From the NCBI GenBank assembly GCA_026225255.1, contig JAMFSJ010000059.1:38311-102310 (forward strand): 64,000 nucleotides of DNA. The letters are read 5' to 3'. Below are positions 5,724 through 10,384 of the stretch, piece by piece. Positions within the stretch are counted from its first letter, which is position 1; the number at the start of each line of letters is the position of its first letter. Made by a program: the position numbers and the translations under genes. Source of the DNA: Methylacidimicrobium fagopyrum. GTDB lineage: Bacteria > Verrucomicrobiota > Verrucomicrobiia > Limisphaerales > UBA11358. The notes below the pieces were generated by a model. That model had not been told where the DNA came from, made no database searches, and saw only the letters and a program-made list of their open reading frames with translations.

Positions 5724-7514
5724 TTATTTTTTCCCGCCTTCAAAATATTCTTCGATCTCTTCGAGCGTCTTGCCTTTCGTTTCCGGCAGGAAGAAAAACG
5801 CGATGATGAAGTAGACGACCGTGCTGCTGGCAAAAAAGAAGAACATGGTCGAATAACCATGCGCGCCGACGGTCGGCAAAAAGACCGCCGCAATCGTGGT
5901 CGAAACGGTTTGGTTGATGAGCAGCGCGAAGCTCATGCCGTTGGAACGGATGCGCGTCGGCATCAGTTCAGTCAGCGCGAGCCAGACGCAAACGCCGGGT
6001 CCAACCGCAAAAAAGCTCACGAACACAAACAGAACCACCGCCGTGAGCCAGCCGTTATTTTCGCTCGGCACGGGCGTGATGAGCGCGTGATCAATTTTCA
6101 GCGGCGCAGTTTTCGCGGTGTCGAGATTGGCGAATGGATTTTTAAAGAACGAAATAACTTTGTTTGCGGGTAGACAGCCTTCGCGCGTGATTTCAATCGA
6201 TTTGGCCGTGACGTCGTCGGAACGAATCGCCGTCGTCGCGCCATGATAATCGCCGTAGGAATAAACGATGACGAGCGTAGCGGGTTGGCCGCCAAAGGTT
6301 TTCCCGGCGAGCAGATTACTGGTCGTTTCCGAATTAAAAGCGAGGGAAAGCGTTTGGTTCGTCGCGACGACTTGCGTTTGCACTGCATCTTTTACATCCA
6401 CGCGCAAGGTTTCGGTCTGGCGAAAAAGCAGTCCGGTGCAAAGCATTGAAACGATGATGCCCGCCGTGCCCAGTGAGAGCAGAAATTTCCGGCCTTTGCG
6501 ATCCACCAAAACGACGGCGATGATGGTCGCGAGAAAATTGACGAGCGTGAACAGGAAATTACAGAAATGCGCGTTCTTATCACCGAGGCCGGCTTGGATC
6601 AAAATCGTGGAGCAATAACCGATGACGGAATTGATGCCTGTGGCTTGATTGCAAGTGAGAATCGCGCACGCGAGCAAAAATGGAATGACGTATTTGCGGC
6701 GCAGCAATGACTCCTTAATTTTTTCGCCGGTGCTTTTGGCCGTGGCAACTTCTGCCATTTCTTTTAATTCCATTTCCGCTTGTTCGCTCGAACGTGAACG
6801 CAACAAGGCAGTGCGAGCCTCATTAATTTTTCCGCGGCGAAACAACCAGCGTGGTGATTCGGTCACGAGAAAACCGCCGATGACAAATAAAATTCCCGGC
6901 GGCAATGAAACCCAGAAAATACTGCGCCACGCGACATCTTTAGCGGCGAAGATTTTTACCGCATCGCCCAGCTTGGAAATTTCATCCACCTTCGCGCTGA
7001 AATACAAACCGATCAAGGCGGCGGCAACAATGCCAAGCGTGAGCATCCATTGAAAAATCCCGGTGCCCTTGCCGCGATTCGACGCCCCAAGACATTCCGC
7101 CAAATACAATGGAATGACGACGCCAATGAAACCGCCGCTGATGCCTTGCAACAAACGTCCCGCCATCAGCAAATCAAAACTGTGCGCGAGTGAAATGATC
7201 GGAATACTGAGGACAAAAAGCAGGCCGCTGACGATCATCATTTTCTTGCGTCCAAAAAAATCCGCCATCACGCCAGCGAATAAAGTGGAGATGACGCTGC
7301 CTAATAACACCGCGGCGACGATGAGGGATAATTGACCGGAGTTGAGCGTTTGGCCCGTGGTCGCGTCCTTGAAGGTTGCTTCCAGATACGGCAACGCGCC
7401 GGAGATGATGCCGACGTCCACGCCGTAAAGCAGTCCGCCTAAACCGGCGACCAAAAGTAGAAAACGATTATAGCCGACTTTAGTGCCGGACGTGCCGGAA
7501 TAATTATTGTTCAT
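5724..7514 (-). CDS. MFS sugar porter (SP family) with a large extracytoplasmic insertion
   Basis: 596 aa. Sugar-porter signatures are present: GRKKMMIVSG, TESPRWLFRRGK, LPETKGKTLEEIE. There is a non-membrane insert of about 125 aa (aa 365-489) between predicted TM9 and TM10. Confidence 0.85.
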   Translation of the reverse strand: MNNNYSGTSGTKVGYNRFLLLVAGLGGLLYGVDVGIISGALPYLEATFKDATTGQTLNSGQLSLIVAAVLLGSVISTLFAGVMADFFGRKKMMIVSGLLFVLSIPIISLAHSFDLLMAGRLLQGISGGFIGVVIPLYLAECLGASNRGKGTGIFQWMLTLGIVAAALIGLYFSAKVDEISKLGDAVKIFAAKDVAWRSIFWVSLPPGILFVIGGFLVTESPRWLFRRGKINEARTALLRSRSSEQAEMELKEMAEVATAKSTGEKIKESLLRRKYVIPFLLACAILTCNQATGINSVIGYCSTILIQAGLGDKNAHFCNFLFTLVNFLATIIAVVLVDRKGRKFLLSLGTAGIIVSMLCTGLLFRQTETLRVDVKDAVQTQVVATNQTLSLAFNSETTSNLLAGKTFGGQPATLVIVYSYGDYHGATTAIRSDDVTAKSIEITREGCLPANKVISFFKNPFANLDTAKTAPLKIDHALITPVPSENNGWLTAVVLFVFVSFFAVGPGVCVWLALTELMPTRIRSNGMSFALLINQTVSTTIAAVFLPTVGAHGYSTMFFFFASSTVVYFIIAFFFLPETKGKTLEEIEEYFEGGKK

Positions 7515-7732
7515 GCAATTCTGATCCTTTGTCTAAAAATATATTTTCTGCCGATACTTTGCCAGTGCCAAACGTAATCCGCCCTCGCCCATTTTGGGGG
7601 ATTGACGGTTTTGGCCGGTCAAGTTAAGCGCGTAAAAAATTTAGGTAAGAGTAATTTCGTTCCGAACCAAACATCCTTAAACTCGTGGGATTCACTTTTA
7701 CCACGCAGCAAAACCCGCCCTAAAAAATCCGT

Positions 7733-7762
7733 TTGACAATTTTCAGCTTTGCATCATTGTAT
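7733..7762 (+). promoter_or_regulatory. Candidate sigma70-type promoter for the riboswitch operon
   Basis: TTGACA at 7733-7738, then 17-18 nt, then ATTGTA/TTGTAT at 7756-7762. It lies about 25 nt upstream of riboswitch helix P1. Confidence 0.4.
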
Positions 7763-7784
7763 CCGCATCCGTTGATTTGACGGA

Positions 7785-7898
7785 CTCATAACGAGTGGTT
7801 GAGGGACTGGCCCGATGACACCACGGCAACCGATTGAACTTTGGTTTCAATGTCAGGTGCCAATTCCAGCCCAGCATCATTAGCTTGGGAAAAATGAG
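7785..7898 (+). promoter_or_regulatory. SAM-I (S-box) riboswitch aptamer
   Basis: CTCATAACGAGTGGTTGAGGGACTGGCCCGATGACACCACGGCAACC...AGGTGCCAATTCCAGCCCAGC...GGGAAAAATGAGAAG. P1 pairs CTCAT (7785-7789) with ATGAG (7894-7898). All conserved S-box blocks are present: GAGGGA, CUGGCCCGAUGA, GGCAACC, GGUGCCAAUUCC. Confidence 0.9.
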
Positions 7899-7919
7899 AA
7901 GCGATGCACAACCGTTTTG

Positions 7920-7957
7920 TCGCCCCTTCTCCTTGTGAGTCGGGGCTTTTTTGTTTT
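7920..7957 (+). terminator. Riboswitch expression-platform intrinsic terminator
   Basis: Stem gcccc..ctc / gag..ggggc (7922-7946) followed by ttttttgttttt. Confidence 0.7.
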
Positions 7958-7965
7958 TAACGAAT

Positions 7966-8030
7966 CATCCTCGTCGTCATCGTCATTCTCATAAATCGAA
8001 ATTGAGGATGACGATGAGAACGAGGACGAG
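7966..8030. repeat. Palindromic element, gaggatgaNgaNgag family
   Basis: Arms catcctcgtcgtcatcgtcattctca (7966-7991) and tgaggatgacgatgagaacgaggacgag (8003-8030). A second copy lies at 24588-24670. Confidence 0.6.
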
Positions 8031-8048
8031 AAAAATTGAAATTTATTT

Positions 8049-9305
8049 ATGAGTGAACAACACGGTTTCATGAAAGCGCTCAAGTGCCGCGAATGCGGCC
8101 GCGAATATCCGCTCACGGCTACGCACGTCTGCGAATTTGACTTCGGCCCGCTTGAGGTCGCCTACGATTACGAGCGCATCAAAAAATCGCTCACGCGCGA
8201 AGCCATCGCGTCGCGCCCGAAAACCATGTGGCGTTATCGCGAACTGCTGCCCATCGCCGGCGAACCGACGGTCGGCAAGCAAGTCGGTTTCACGCCGCTC
8301 GTGAAGGCCGATCGCCTCGCGAAGAAACTCGGCATCCGCGAACTTTACATCAAAAACGACGCCGTGAATTATCCGACGCTCTCGTTCAAGGACCGCGTCG
8401 TCAGCGTTGCGCTGAGCCGCGCGAAGGAACTCGGTTTTGAAACCGTTGCATGTGCGTCCACCGGCAATTTGGCCAACTCCGTTGCCGCCAATGCGGCGAG
8501 CGCGGGCTTAAAATCCTACGTTTTTATTCCGTCGGATTTGGAACAGGGAAAAATTTTGAACTCGCTCATCTACGGCGCAAACGTCATCGCCATCAAAGGC
8601 CATTACGACGAAGTGAATCGTCTCTGCGCCGAGATCGCGGGCAAGTTCGGCTGGGCGTTCGTGAACGTCAATATGCGCCCCTACTATGCCGAAGGCTCAA
8701 AGAGCATGGCGTATGAGATCGCCGAACAACTCGGTTGGAAATTGCCGGATCACACGATTGTCCCGATGGCGTCCGGCTCGTTGCTGACGAAGATTCACAA
8801 AGGCTATCAGGAATTGACCAAGCTAGGTTTGGTGTCGGCGCACAATACGCACATCCACGGGGCGCAGGCGACGGGCTGTTCGCCGATTTCGGTTGCGCAA
8901 AAAGCGGGCTTGGATTTCTTCAAGCCGGTGAAGCCCGACACGATCGCGAAATCACTCGCCATTGGCACGCCGGCGGACGGTTTCTATGCGCTCAAAGTGA
9001 TGCGCGAAACAGCCGCCTACGCCGACGACGTGAGCGACGACGAAATCCGCGACGCGATCAAATTGCTCGCGGAAACGGAAGGCATTTTTGCCGAGACCGC
9101 CGGCGGCGTGACCGTAGGCGTGGCCAAAAAACTCATCGCGTCCGGTAAGATTCCGAAAGATTCTTCGGCCGTGATCTGCGTCACTGGCAATGGATTAAAA
9201 ACGCTCGACGCCGTCAACGGTTACTGCGGCAAACCGCGCGAAATCAAGCCAAGTTTGCGTGAGTTTGAAGCATTGTTGGCGCACGAAGAAAAAGTCGGTG
9301 TATAA
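8049..9305 (+). CDS. Threonine-synthase-family PLP enzyme (ThrC paralogue; predicted O-phosphohomoserine-dependent homocysteine synthase)
   Basis: 418 aa. It has an N-terminal Cys ribbon (CRECGREY...HVCEFDFG) and the PLP-lysine motif YPTLSFKDR. Family assignment is firm. The homocysteine role is inferred from the SAM riboswitch and the adjacent GG-carrier. Confidence 0.85.
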   Translation: MSEQHGFMKALKCRECGREYPLTATHVCEFDFGPLEVAYDYERIKKSLTREAIASRPKTMWRYRELLPIAGEPTVGKQVGFTPLVKADRLAKKLGIRELYIKNDAVNYPTLSFKDRVVSVALSRAKELGFETVACASTGNLANSVAANAASAGLKSYVFIPSDLEQGKILNSLIYGANVIAIKGHYDEVNRLCAEIAGKFGWAFVNVNMRPYYAEGSKSMAYEIAEQLGWKLPDHTIVPMASGSLLTKIHKGYQELTKLGLVSAHNTHIHGAQATGCSPISVAQKAGLDFFKPVKPDTIAKSLAIGTPADGFYALKVMRETAAYADDVSDDEIRDAIKLLAETEGIFAETAGGVTVGVAKKLIASGKIPKDSSAVICVTGNGLKTLDAVNGYCGKPREIKPSLREFEALLAHEEKVGV

Positions 9306-9326
9306 TAACTAATTACAATTAAATTT

Positions 9327-9602
9327 ATGTCAAAGAAAGTCCGCATCCCAACGCCGCTCCGCAAGTTGACCAACAACGAAGAGCTGGTTGAAATTAATTC
9401 CGCCACCATCGGCGAGGCCATTGCTGAATTGCAAGCGCGCTTCCCCGGCATCGCCGAACGGCTCATAGACGAAAAAGGCGAAGTGCGCCGCTTCGTCAAC
9501 GTTTACGTGAATGAGGAAGACATCCGCTTCCTCGAAAACAGCGCGACGAAGCTCAATGATGGCGACGAAATCAGCATCATTCCGGCCATCGCAGGCGGTT
9601 AG
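9327..9602 (+). CDS. ThiS/MoaD/CysO-type beta-grasp sulfur-carrier protein (C-terminal Gly-Gly)
   Basis: 91 aa ending ...DGDEISIIPAIAGG followed by the stop codon. The size and C-terminus are typical of thiocarboxylate carriers. Confidence 0.8.
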   Translation: MSKKVRIPTPLRKLTNNEELVEINSATIGEAIAELQARFPGIAERLIDEKGEVRRFVNVYVNEEDIRFLENSATKLNDGDEISIIPAIAGG

Positions 9603-9613
9603 TCATCAAAGTA

Positions 9614-9679
9614 GGAGACGACGTGAGATGTCTCTGATATTTTTGAAAAATCGACACTGTGAGACTCGTCACCTCGTCT
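9614..9679. repeat. Imperfect inverted repeat between carrier and NIL genes
   Basis: ggagacgacgtgagatgtctc (9614-9634) versus gagactcgtcacctcgtct (9661-9679). 15 of 19 positions are complementary by hand alignment. Confidence 0.4.
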
Positions 9680-9698
9680 TTTACAAAAAATTAAAATT

Positions 9699-9983
9699 AT
9701 GGCCGCCAAAAAGAAAATCATCGTCACCAAGCCCAACGCACCGGTGCAACAGCGTCTGTGGCTGATGTATCCGCCGAAGCTGATCAAGAAGCCGTTCATC
9801 TACGAGGTCGGCCATAAATTCAAGGTCGTGACGAATATCCGCCAAGCCAGCGTGACAGACGAGATCGGCATCGTCTGCCTCGAACTCGACGGCCCGCGCA
9901 GCGAAGTCGCCGCCGCCATTAAATGGTTGGAGAAAAACAAAGTGAACGTGGAGCCGGTGGAGATCGGCGTGATTGCCGGTTGA
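9699..9983 (+). CDS. Stand-alone NIL-domain protein (MetN C-terminal-type domain)
   Basis: 94 aa. KVVTNIRQASVTDEIGIVCLELDGPRSEVAAAIKWLEKNKVNVE resembles the NIL ferredoxin-like fold of methionine-importer ATPases. Confidence 0.6.
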   Translation: MAAKKKIIVTKPNAPVQQRLWLMYPPKLIKKPFIYEVGHKFKVVTNIRQASVTDEIGIVCLELDGPRSEVAAAIKWLEKNKVNVEPVEIGVIAG

Positions 9984-10004
9984 ATTAATTTGTGGGGACA
10001 AATG

Positions 10005-10046
10005 AAACGGCGCGGAGAATTTTCTCCGCGCCGTTTTTTATTTTTC
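10005..10046 (+). terminator. Intrinsic terminator of the riboswitch operon
   Basis: Perfect 14-bp stem aaacggcgcggaga (10005-10018) / tctccgcgccgttt (10023-10036), 4-nt loop, then a T-run. Confidence 0.85.
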
Positions 10047-10055
10047 GCGACCAAA

Positions 10056-10259
10056 GCGAATTAAGTGCCAAAGGCACGGACGGAAATTAGCCAGCTACGA
10101 AGTGTCTGGTAATATTCTAAAGATTTCTCCGTCCCGGCGGGACGGTGGAAATATTTGTGAGTGACCATGCGTTCAATTTTCCTTCGTCCTTTCAGGACGT
10201 TTCATTGATCACCAATAACCCGGCACGATGTGCCAGGCTAATTTCCGCAGTCGATTCGC
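10056..10259. repeat. BIME-like mosaic of small GC-rich hairpins
   Basis: Local hairpins: gtgccaaaggcac (10065-10077), ccgtcccggcgggacgg (10129-10145), cgtcctttcaggacg (10185-10199), ggcacgatgtgcc (10222-10234). They are framed by cggaaattagcc (10081-10092) / ggctaatttccg (10235-10246) and gcgaat (10056-10061) / attcgc (10254-10259). Confidence 0.5.
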
Positions 10260-10345
10260 GACGCAGCAAGGCTTGTGAGAAGTTCAAAACAATTAGAATC
10301 AAAACTCGGCGGTCTATAGCACGGTGACATAGACAGCCGCTACAA

Positions 10346-10384
10346 ATAAAAAAACGGCGCGATGACATTCATCGCGCCGTTTTG
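10346..10384 (-). terminator. Intrinsic (bidirectional) terminator after atpC
   Basis: Stem acggcgcgat (10354-10363) / atcgcgccgt (10371-10380), flanked by an A-run and a T-run. It lies 16 nt downstream of the atpC stop. Confidence 0.8.

Follow-up and report, generated by a model that had tools for sequence, protein, structure and literature searches.

Introduction

The cysteine pathway of Mycobacterium tuberculosis is made up of CysM, CysO, Mec and MoeZ (structure 3DWG), and in it a carrier thiocarboxylate attacks the PLP-bound intermediate formed from an O-phospho-amino acid, in this case O-phosphoserine. A route to homocysteine has been described for Streptomyces albulus, in which, according to the accessible descriptions, MetM and MetO use O-phosphohomoserine and the carrier thiocarboxylate and a SAM riboswitch lies upstream of metM (Hasebe et al. 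2024, Appl Environ Microbiol 90:e01247-24; GapMind 2026; PMC12172450). As far as these sources are accessible, the published parts of the pathway are MetM, MetO, MoeZ and Mec (GapMind 2026; PMC12172450); it is already included in GapMind, and MetM is commonly mislabelled as threonine synthase (GapMind 2026). NIL domains are known from two other settings. In the C2/NIL domain of the Escherichia coli methionine importer MetNI (3DHW, 3DHX, 3TUZ, 6CVL), MetN residue N295 hydrogen-bonds the bound methionine across the C2 dimer, A299 is located on the dimer-interface strand and L-methionine binding is no longer detectable with the N295A substitution. The archaeal homocysteine enzyme L-aspartate-semialdehyde sulfurtransferase (L-ASST; DUF39/COG1900), which starts from aspartate semialdehyde, has an MA1822-type NIL-ferredoxin whose NIL domain has been described as methionine-binding and regulatory. 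Here we analyse a verrucomicrobial (Limisphaerales-type) locus in which a stand-alone NIL protein accompanies MetM- and MetO-type proteins under a SAM riboswitch.

Results

The locus lies on the plus strand of a 64-kb window, the whole stretch of DNA that was analysed. An earlier note on this DNA had read an S-box aptamer at 7785-7898, an intrinsic terminator at 7920-7957 and a closing terminator at 10005-10046, all of which hold up with slightly adjusted borders. The RF00162 search proposed there places the SAM-I (S-box) aptamer at 7783-7900 (+; 76.2 bits against a gathering cut-off of 44.4, E = 4e-16), aligned over model positions 1-108 and thus at full length, and an Rfam search of the entire 64 kb returned nothing besides this single match. 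The intrinsic terminator of the expression platform (7922-7958, +) consists of a stem at 7922-7946 and a U6GU5 run reaching about 7958, and a strong intrinsic terminator with a T-run (10004-10046, +; 15-bp stem at 10004-10037, nine GC pairs) marks the operon end. Relatives have homologous SAM-I aptamers upstream of metM, their leaders conserve the terminator stem and U-run, and 23 of the 25 loci tested that keep the genes separate are preceded by SAM-I. By eye only, GAGAAG (7895-7900) may pair with CUUCUC (7927-7932) as a candidate antiterminator; MFE folding recovered neither this pairing nor any other resolved antiterminator. A possible promoter at 7733-7762 (+), read from the sequence and not listed by a consensus promoter scan, combines TTGACA (7733-7738) with TTGTAT, which weakly resembles a -10 box and lies some 18 nt further downstream. 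Judged from this anatomy, high SAM would fold the S-box aptamer, allow the terminator at 7922-7958 to form and end transcription, and low SAM would let metM-metO-nil be transcribed as far as the terminator at 10004-10046.

All three proteins named in the earlier note are present. The first gene (8049-9305, +) encodes the 418-aa member of the threonine synthase family with its Cys ribbon and PTLSFKDR motif, which matches PALP in Pfam (236 bits) and, above cut-off, the thrC model TIGR00260 in NCBIfam (290 bits). Since PTLSFKDR begins at residue 109, the PLP lysine is K114 (codon 8388-8390), and the N-terminal Zn-ribbon-like C13/C16/H26/C28 matches Pfam NinF. Identity is 51-69% to ThrC paralogues linked to a carrier or NIL gene, including 55.7-56.8% to the riboswitch-linked homologue of Nonomuraea gerenzanensis (locus order SAM-I, metM-like, metO-like), as compared with 30-36% to annotated thrC genes. 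In the phylogeny that had been suggested earlier, built here by neighbour joining, the window enzyme and its riboswitch- or carrier-linked homologues form one clade apart from annotated thrC. The second gene (9327-9602, +) encodes the 91-aa beta-grasp carrier of the ThiS family (PF02597, 67 bits); it ends in AIAGG with the stop codon immediately after, leaving a free Gly-Gly, is 52% identical to the carrier adjoining the Nonomuraea metM homologue and has M. tuberculosis CysO as its best solved relative (3dwg_C, E = 1e-21).

The third gene (9699-9983, +) encodes the 94-aa NIL protein (PF09383, 39.5 bits), an ACT-like beta-alpha-beta-beta-alpha-beta domain with a Lys-rich N-terminal tail. In a profile comparison it matches the C2 domain of MetN (1e-10), with which it shares most invariant core residues; with its AF2 model (pLDDT 81) as Foldseek query, the top 11 matches are all MetN C2/NIL domains, and ACT domains come next. 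N46 (codon 9834-9836) aligns with the methionine-contacting N295 of MetN, and A50 with the interface residue A299. Since this Asn is a hallmark of the entire NIL family, its presence is no proof of methionine binding. T45, R48 and P86, invariant and specific to this NIL family (R48 adjoins the ligand Asn), could speak for another ligand or another partner.

Chance does not explain the arrangement, as 80 loci of related genomes and some 80 metagenome loci have the metM/metO/NIL trio again; in the form of three genes, NIL being separate, it is widespread among bacteria. In Limisphaerales, metO lies directly 5' of the NIL gene in 79 of 80 loci, and metM belongs to the same locus in 60 of the 66 with enough upstream DNA; the other six keep metO-NIL without metM. 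Among metagenomic loci with upstream DNA, metM adjoins in 55 of 58 (hand tally). A second clade of 80-aa NIL proteins, Chloroflexota wherever a taxon name was given, has a MetM-clade enzyme immediately 5' of NIL in all seven distinct contexts, and in one locus (L082) the MetM-clade stop and NIL start overlap. Gene order varies by lineage (metM-metO-NIL, metM-NIL-metO or metM-metO-CysK/CysM-like-NIL). Fusions are found as well: ThiS~NIL is a single ORF in 20 metagenomic loci, where the internal AIAGG does not vary, the linker spans 6-12 aa and ThiF and JAB genes come next in most cases; two proteins join NIL to a JAMM protease (Prok-JAB~NIL); and tandem NIL~NIL proteins, which mimic the C2 dimer, also exist.

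Discussion

The earlier note had proposed that a ThrC paralogue uses carrier-thiocarboxylate sulfur to make homocysteine under SAM control, which agrees with the accessible reports on S. albulus and with the clade placement of the enzyme. Its tentative mention of a metM/metO pair in actinomycetes likewise proves correct as far as Hasebe et al. 2024 is accessible, and the core chemistry is hence already known. Homology, synteny and regulation support this pathway reading, and we predict from sequence that the 418-aa protein is a homocysteine synthase dependent on O-phosphohomoserine and a carrier thiocarboxylate; its putative orthology to the characterised S. albulus pair rests on the Nonomuraea homologue as proxy, with the same arrangement and 56-57% identity, and on second-hand descriptions. 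As those describe it, the S. albulus system shares with ours a ThrC-like PLP enzyme beside a ThiS/CysO-type carrier, a SAM riboswitch upstream, O-phosphohomoserine as substrate and homocysteine as product (both predicted here), and a need, likewise predicted here, for two proteins supplied from elsewhere, an E1 of the MoeZ type and a JAMM of the Mec type. The earlier remark that no E1 or JAMM gene is adjacent extends to the 64 kb, where neither a Pfam scan of the ORFs nor whole-window tblastn found a ThiF-type E1 or a JAMM. The S. albulus system differs from ours in phylum and in that the window MetO terminates exactly at Gly-Gly, which makes C-terminal trimming unnecessary. The CysM-CysO system follows the same carrier logic, and many related loci cluster a CysM/CysK-like gene with a ThiF and a JAB gene as well; in contrast to the window operon, however, it has a CysM-type rather than ThrC-type PLP enzyme and lacks SAM-riboswitch control and a NIL partner. 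By homology to the Streptomyces system, an E1 of the MoeZ/ThiF type, encoded elsewhere, would adenylate MetO and convert it to the thiocarboxylate, MetM would remove phosphate from O-phospho-L-homoserine so that the MetO thiocarboxylate sulfur joins C-gamma, and a Mec-type JAMM hydrolase encoded elsewhere would release homocysteine.

What is new is the NIL protein, which accompanies MetM/MetO here and in many other bacteria but not in the characterised version of the pathway: a NIL gene was not found in the actinomycete (Nonomuraea) metM-metO locus, the accessible descriptions of the S. albulus locus are silent on this third conserved gene, and the searchable literature makes no mention of a NIL partner, so that the earlier view of the three-gene form as uncharacterised holds within that literature. 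Since actinomycete metM-metO loci do without it, NIL is dispensable for the chemistry itself. To our minds, with a probability of roughly 60%, the locus is a SAM-repressed metM-metO-nil operon for a thiocarboxylate route to homocysteine with NIL as its methionine-sensing regulatory partner, the sensing role being our best guess. As a small regulatory subunit, NIL would form a dimer around methionine or a closely similar compound, for example homocysteine, and would damp MetM, MetO or both at the level of the proteins, complementing the riboswitch. It has the Pfam family, fold, ligand Asn and interface Ala of MetN C2; in contrast to that domain, however, it is free-standing rather than the C-terminus of an ABC ATPase, has a biosynthetic enzyme and a carrier rather than a transporter as genetic partner, and adds its own invariants and Lys-rich tail, and methionine binding is putative. 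IlvN and IlvH, the ACT-type regulatory small subunits of acetohydroxyacid synthase, may serve as a functional analogy: they too are small beta-alpha-beta-beta-alpha-beta proteins encoded beside their catalytic subunit, often translationally coupled, and NIL, whose regulatory role is hypothetical, would similarly control its neighbour by binding the pathway end product.

A rather unlikely alternative, yet one that several of our findings would suit, sees NIL not as a ligand sensor but as a protein that serves the carrier system as chaperone or structural adaptor, docking MetO or its thiocarboxylate onto MetM, E1 or JAMM, or shielding the thiocarboxylate; in fusion lineages, JAMM cleavage after Gly-Gly would release the parts of a MetO~NIL precursor. 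The Limisphaerales metO-NIL pair is tighter than the link to metM, as the six loci without metM illustrate, the ThiS~NIL fusions keep AIAGG and mostly have ThiF and JAB genes next to them, R48 sits beside the ligand Asn, and fusion to carrier or JAMM suits an adaptor as well as a sensor. MetO and NIL are also oppositely charged here (pI 4.9 vs 9.6), but the Chloroflexota NIL looks acidic by eye from its sequence, so charge complementarity is apparently not general. Moreover, the 80-aa NIL clade stays with MetM also in loci that lack a neighbouring carrier gene (L167, L174), the actinomycete-type locus, as far as described, functions without NIL, and both the fold and the conserved residues at the interface correspond to a regulatory dimer that binds a ligand, as the sensor reading would have it.

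We think it improbable that NIL helps to mobilise sulfur at a step before the carrier, passing sulfide or persulfide sulfur to E1 or MetM by analogy with the NIL-ferredoxin subunit of archaeal L-ASST. Genes for TusA, DsrH/DrsE, cysteine desulfurase, NifU, MOSC and AIRS do adjoin NIL in four loci (L167, L169, L174, L175), and some such contexts have no carrier, which could mean sulfur delivery rather than feedback. In NIL itself, however, C60, the sole cysteine, lacks conservation and the invariant columns include no Cys, so that it can bear neither a persulfide nor an Fe-S cluster, and the NIL domain of L-ASST is itself described as a methionine-binding regulatory part. The tie to MA1822-type proteins drawn in the earlier note stands for the shared domain, and for attachment to a non-canonical homocysteine-forming system, but goes no further, as the 94-aa window protein has neither a ferredoxin domain nor a DUF39 partner and its pathway would start from O-phosphohomoserine instead of aspartate semialdehyde.

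More doubtful still is a sulfur compound other than homocysteine as product, with MetO mainly feeding a CysM-type cysteine synthase or the ThrC-like enzyme acting on another phospho- or acyl-amino acid. Many non-verrucomicrobial loci cluster CysK/CysM-like PALP genes with MetM, MetO and NIL, the carrier is nearest CysO and ThrC relatives have evolved other chemistries (e.g. cysteate synthase); yet a CysM-like gene was not found in the operon or the 64-kb window, the SAM riboswitch points to the methionine/SAM branch and membership in a clade with the riboswitch-linked actinomycete enzyme favours homocysteine. Hardly credible, finally, is an ordinary threonine synthase, the name that every database gives the enzyme, coincidentally beside a molybdopterin or thiamin carrier, as the TIGR00260 score and the source annotation ('threonine synthase', 'molybdopterin synthase sulfur carrier subunit') would have it, for control is by a SAM rather than a threonine-related element, the trio is kept across phyla despite reordering and fusions, the enzyme clade is separate from thrC, MoaE, ThiG and ThiF are not found near the CysO-like carrier, and the first of these names is a frequent misannotation of MetM. 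The JGI label for these NIL proteins, 'L-aspartate semialdehyde sulfurtransferase ferredoxin', is a misnomer.

The operon and its riboswitch leader

The aptamer, terminator, three genes and closing terminator that the earlier note had read from the sequence are all present, with matches in Rfam for the aptamer and in Pfam and NCBIfam for the genes. Seen directly in the sequence is a SAM-I riboswitch aptamer (RF00162; 7783-7900, + strand), which matches the full model (1-108 of 108) at 76.2 bits (gathering threshold 44.4; E 4e-16) and represents the sole Rfam family found by covariance-model scanning of the whole 64 kb. Equally visible, 3' of the riboswitch, are three co-directional ORFs (+ strand) with their families: a metM-type gene (8049-9305; 418 aa) for a fold-type II PLP enzyme of the ThrC family, with PALP (236 bits) and TIGR00260 thrC (290 bits) matches; a metO-type gene (9327-9602; 91 aa; ThiS family PF02597, 67 bits), which begins 21 nt past metM and ends on a free Gly-Gly (AIAGG, then the stop codon); and a NIL gene (9699-9983; 94 aa; PF09383, 39.5 bits against a gathering threshold of 24). 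The MetM product carries the PLP motif PTLSFK114DR, in which K114 is the Schiff-base lysine predicted from the ThrC-type motif, and an N-terminal ribbon (C13/C16/H26/C28) that matches Pfam NinF. The operon is closed by a terminator with a 15-bp GC-rich hairpin (10004-10037). The rest of the window is unrelated (a convergent ATP synthase operon from 10400 on, MFS transporters, a fucosidase, two-component systems, pheT and pyruvate-dehydrogenase-type subunits) and, in line with the earlier note, neither a ThiF-type E1 nor a JAMM protein was found among the ORFs scanned in these 64 kb. ThiF and Prok-JAB do occur in related clusters of other lineages.

Directly 3' of the aptamer and 5' of metM, a methionine/SAM-related gene, sits the expression-platform intrinsic terminator, also seen directly (stem 7922-7946 followed by U6GU5), 91 nt upstream of the metM ATG. 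From this leader anatomy, transcription termination upstream of metM is predicted to be SAM-dependent. A clear antiterminator was absent from MFE folding of the leader with the 5' P1 strand blocked, the only candidate visible being a 6-bp GAGAAG/CUUCUC pairing.

Two palindromes within the operon were considered as extra regulatory elements and rejected, since the corresponding spots in relatives hold unrelated palindromes or lack one. The one between riboswitch terminator and metM start (7965-8029) is imperfect, with 27-nt arms that are 85% complementary; at the same spot, loci of related genomes carry unrelated long palindromes with CACAGAG-rich (L001, L002, L014, L035, L038) or GC-rich arms (L029, L068, L079) or none (L004, L011, L054, L061), and it resembles a variable extragenic palindrome of REP/MITE type rather than a part of the switch. 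The other is a stable hairpin (9611-9682; -30 kcal/mol, z -2.9) in the 96-nt metO-NIL spacer. It is not conserved, because this spacer varies between 4 and 255 nt across 79 Limisphaerales relatives, and it could be an inserted palindrome or an mRNA processing/stability element. Past the operon, ~300 nt of non-coding DNA (10047-10350) reach up to a strong bidirectional terminator (10351-10383) at the end of the convergent atp operon; this stretch holds a 33-nt inverted repeat (10081-10113 / 10215-10247, 73% complementary) and has no Rfam match at the gathering threshold.

MetM and MetO types

The MetM/MetO core of the operon is already a published pathway. In Streptomyces albulus (Hasebe et al. 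2024), metM has a SAM riboswitch upstream and homologues are present elsewhere, according to PMC12172450. Since our description of that pathway is second-hand, a locus from Nonomuraea gerenzanensis (L166) was used as proxy for the characterised MetM/MetO. It was retrieved by tblastn against a plasmid collection, albeit from a record of 11.85 Mb that is therefore evidently a chromosome, and its enzyme is 55.7% identical to the 418-aa protein over 98% of the query; annotated thrC genes in the same search reach at most 36.5%. L166 is made up of a SAM-I riboswitch (5846-5987, 68.7 bits), a MetM homologue (6001-7233) and a MetO homologue (7261-7533) that is 52% identical to window MetO. Thus, window and Nonomuraea have the layout SAM-I, metM, metO in common, but the NIL gene is absent from L166. 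In addition, no NIL homologue was found in the plasmid collection.

All carrier- or NIL-linked ThrC-like proteins, Nonomuraea included, fall into one clade of a neighbour-joining tree (18 sequences), with members 51-69% identical to window MetM, while four annotated thrC genes (30-36% identical to the window protein) lie outside. So the 418-aa protein groups with riboswitch- and carrier-linked paralogues, apart from annotated thrC, and together with the riboswitch and the published pathway this supports the sulfur-carrier-dependent homocysteine route that the earlier note had envisaged. Solved ThrC structures cover only MetM residues 56-407 (about 1e-47 to 1e-57), and the best structural-database match and closest solved relative of MetO, a beta-grasp protein of ThiS/MoaD fold, is M. 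tuberculosis CysO (3dwg_C, E 1e-21). On the grounds of homology to the Nonomuraea proxy and CysO plus synteny, we file the first two genes as putative metM and metO types. By analogy with the published system, as far as secondary accounts describe it, MetO would be thiocarboxylated by an E1 encoded elsewhere, MetM would catalyse gamma-replacement on O-phosphohomoserine and a JAMM hydrolase would free homocysteine. Window MetO ends exactly at Gly-Gly, whereas some Chloroflexota homologues (L082:7253-7540, L176, L084) extend 1-4 residues beyond it (GGGRKA, GGA, GGR) and would need JAMM trimming.

Linkage of NIL to metM and metO

A 90% non-redundant database contains 3939 homologues of the NIL protein, and 502 clusters at 50% identity are matched (E up to 1e-3). 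Our genome scan yielded 80 MAG loci from close Limisphaerales (Verrucomicrobia subdivision 3) relatives only, with NIL proteins 72-91% identical; breadth beyond this group comes from a representative search, contig look-ups and a metagenome scan. Among the Limisphaerales loci, 79 of 80 have metO directly 5' of NIL, the remaining one being truncated at a contig end. Of the 66 that extend 3 kb or more upstream, 60 include metM, and every metM present comes with a riboswitch. In six loci (L009, L010, L023, L059, L063, L071), metO and NIL stay together in an otherwise unrelated neighbourhood, with neither metM nor a SAM riboswitch within 8 kb upstream, so the pair is separable from metM.

The metM-metO spacer, short in the window, is an insertion hot spot inside the operon and 3' of the riboswitch: in 27 of 60 Limisphaerales loci it has expanded to 0.45-4.6 kb (among them L006, L013, L014, L016, L018, L022, L049, L051, L057, L058, L064 and L076). 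Judged by eye from their motifs, the ORFs therein are toxin-antitoxin-like (PIN/VapC, RelE/ParE, HigA-like antidote, nucleotidyltransferase/HEPN) or lipoprotein-like, and we therefore reject the idea that the missing JAMM or E1 hides in these insertions.

An 80-aa NIL clade (Chloroflexota where named) accounts for 7078 profile matches. In all seven distinct contexts that were read, a MetM-clade enzyme (51-60% identical to window MetM) sits immediately 5' of NIL, and in L082 the MetM stop and NIL start overlap. Since a CysO-like carrier adjoins NIL in four of the seven, gene order there is metM-NIL-metO rather than metM-metO-NIL as in the window. L082 and L083 start with a SAM-I riboswitch and contain ThiS-ThiF, a CysK/M-like PALP gene and Prok-JAB further on.

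NIL is also seen in sulfur-trafficking clusters without an adjoining CysO-like carrier (L167:297-8580, L174:897-8754, L175:315-9602, L169:66-1966). Carrier-poor L167, L174 and L175 feature Cys_Met_Meta_PP, cysteine desulfurase, AIRS, MOSC, NifU and TusA genes; one carrier-less layout runs Cys_Met_Meta_PP, MetM-clade PALP, NIL, cysteine desulfurase, AIRS-domain protein, MOSC, NifU and TusA, another DsrH, TusA, tandem NIL and Rrf2. There are hints here of a carrier-independent second way to feed sulfur to MetM-type enzymes.

Representative NIL-family proteins include ThiS-NIL fusions (P0275, P0339, P0351 and others), Prok-JAB-NIL fusions (P0331, P0357) and tandem NIL-NIL proteins. A metagenome scan seeded with the ThiS-NIL fusions returned 80 loci (L086-L165), in 20 of which one ORF encodes both carrier and NIL domain, joined by a linker of 6-12 aa behind an internal AIAGG that is invariant. 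MetM is adjacent in 55 of the 58 metagenome loci whose upstream DNA spans 400 nt or more (hand tally). The usual order at fusion loci is MetM, fusion, ThiF, JAB and CysK/M, while separate-gene loci read metM-metO-NIL, metM-metO-NIL-CysKM-ThiF or ThiF-metM-metO-CysKM-NIL-ThiF. Of the loci tested for SAM-I, 23 of 25 with separate genes and none of nine of the fusion type have it 5' of the cluster; ThiF, Prok-JAB and a CysK/M-like gene are nearly always part of the cluster at the latter (e.g. L138, L144, L147, L151). Fusion-type and separate-gene loci look like two styles of the same system that are distinct in both regulation and organisation. Thermus 1V8C, a 168-aa 'MoaD related protein', was dropped as a candidate for a solved ThiS-NIL fusion because the NIL profile gave no match even at E 10. 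One Moco riboswitch (L105:12851-12976, - strand) and one 6S RNA (L124:6658-6837, + strand) near metM-metO-NIL loci are incidental.

NIL stays linked to MetM and MetO while gene order is shuffled and fusions have arisen several times independently, which is strong comparative evidence for a joint function of the three proteins. In the literature that could be searched, this conserved and sometimes fused NIL partner is undescribed; for the three-gene form with a separate NIL protein, this agrees with the earlier note.

Likely role of the NIL protein

The NIL family profile hits E. coli MetN at its isolated C2 domain (3dhx; 1e-10), and most of the invariant NIL core (P32, F41, N46, A50, G57, E62, G65, W76, V82, V84) is common to MetN. 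Seen directly in the sequence, N46 is invariant in our NIL alignment (A5) and aligns with MetN N295; accordingly, the N295A mutant chain 6cvl_C reads Ala at this position. In MetN, the methionine ligand forms a hydrogen bond with N295 from the opposite C2 domain, N295A lowers L-methionine binding to undetectable levels, and A299, which aligns with A50, is on a strand that shifts register upon methionine binding (PMC6233128). An AlphaFold model of NIL built from 39 sequences (pLDDT 81) has beta-alpha-beta-beta-alpha-beta topology, and its top 11 Foldseek matches are MetN C2/NIL structures (TM 0.65-0.71), with ACT domains next. Unlike MetN C2, a C-terminal appendage of an ABC ATPase, window NIL is a free-standing 94-aa ORF with metO and the terminator as neighbours. 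In the archaeal L-aspartate-semialdehyde sulfurtransferase (L-ASST), the NIL domain of the ferredoxin subunit has been described as methionine-binding and regulatory. That MA1822-type subunit, however, combines NIL with a 4Fe-4S ferredoxin and has a DUF39/COG1900 partner, whereas window NIL has no Fer4 match and no DUF39 protein was found among the window ORFs scanned.

On balance, the reading with most support makes NIL a small subunit that senses methionine (or homocysteine) and regulates the MetM/MetO machinery; it would, we hypothesise, bind methionine and damp the pathway. NIL is dispensable for catalysis, since the actinomycete locus does without it. The main rival, which sees NIL as an adaptor or chaperone for the carrier, draws support from the ThiS-NIL and JAB-NIL fusions and from how tightly metO and NIL are paired in Limisphaerales. 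NIL is unlikely to act through a persulfide or Fe-S cluster because no cysteine is conserved in the family, the single one of window NIL included.

If the sensing small subunit is taken further, NIL may be a so far unrecognised third subunit of homocysteine synthases that depend on a thiocarboxylate, regulating MetM much like IlvN and made in some lineages as a MetO-NIL precursor whose internal Gly-Gly has to be exposed by JAMM. We regard this extended scenario as possible yet rather doubtful. If true, it would bring ubiquitin-style precursor processing, which also fixes a 1:1 carrier:regulator ratio, to a bacterial biosynthetic pathway. More generally, the two-gene MetM/MetO unit defined in actinomycetes usually comes with the NIL partner in other phyla, making NIL a concrete candidate for feedback control of the pathway at the protein level. 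One small sensor domain would thereby tie together three unrelated methionine systems, i.e. the MetNI importer, archaeal L-ASST and MetM/MetO.

All three genes are systematically misannotated in abundant environmental lineages. MetM-type genes are labelled 'threonine synthase', MetO-type genes 'molybdopterin synthase sulfur carrier subunit' and NIL homologues, where not simply called 'NIL domain-containing', 'ABC-type methionine transport ATPase subunit' or 'L-aspartate semialdehyde sulfurtransferase ferredoxin'. These misleading names affect abundant soil and freshwater Verrucomicrobiota and Chloroflexota, and reconstructions based on them would overlook a complete homocysteine route and might call methionine auxotrophy wrongly.

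Verrucomicrobial-type NIL proteins also have Lys/Ala/Pro-rich N-terminal tails of about 15-80 aa that are predicted to be disordered, as seen in the window (9699-9752, NIL residues 1-18; pI 10.5) and in P0250, P0255, P0260, P0266 and P0277; the 80-aa Chloroflexota form is without one. Possibilities for such a tail are a charged tether to acidic MetO or nucleic-acid binding.
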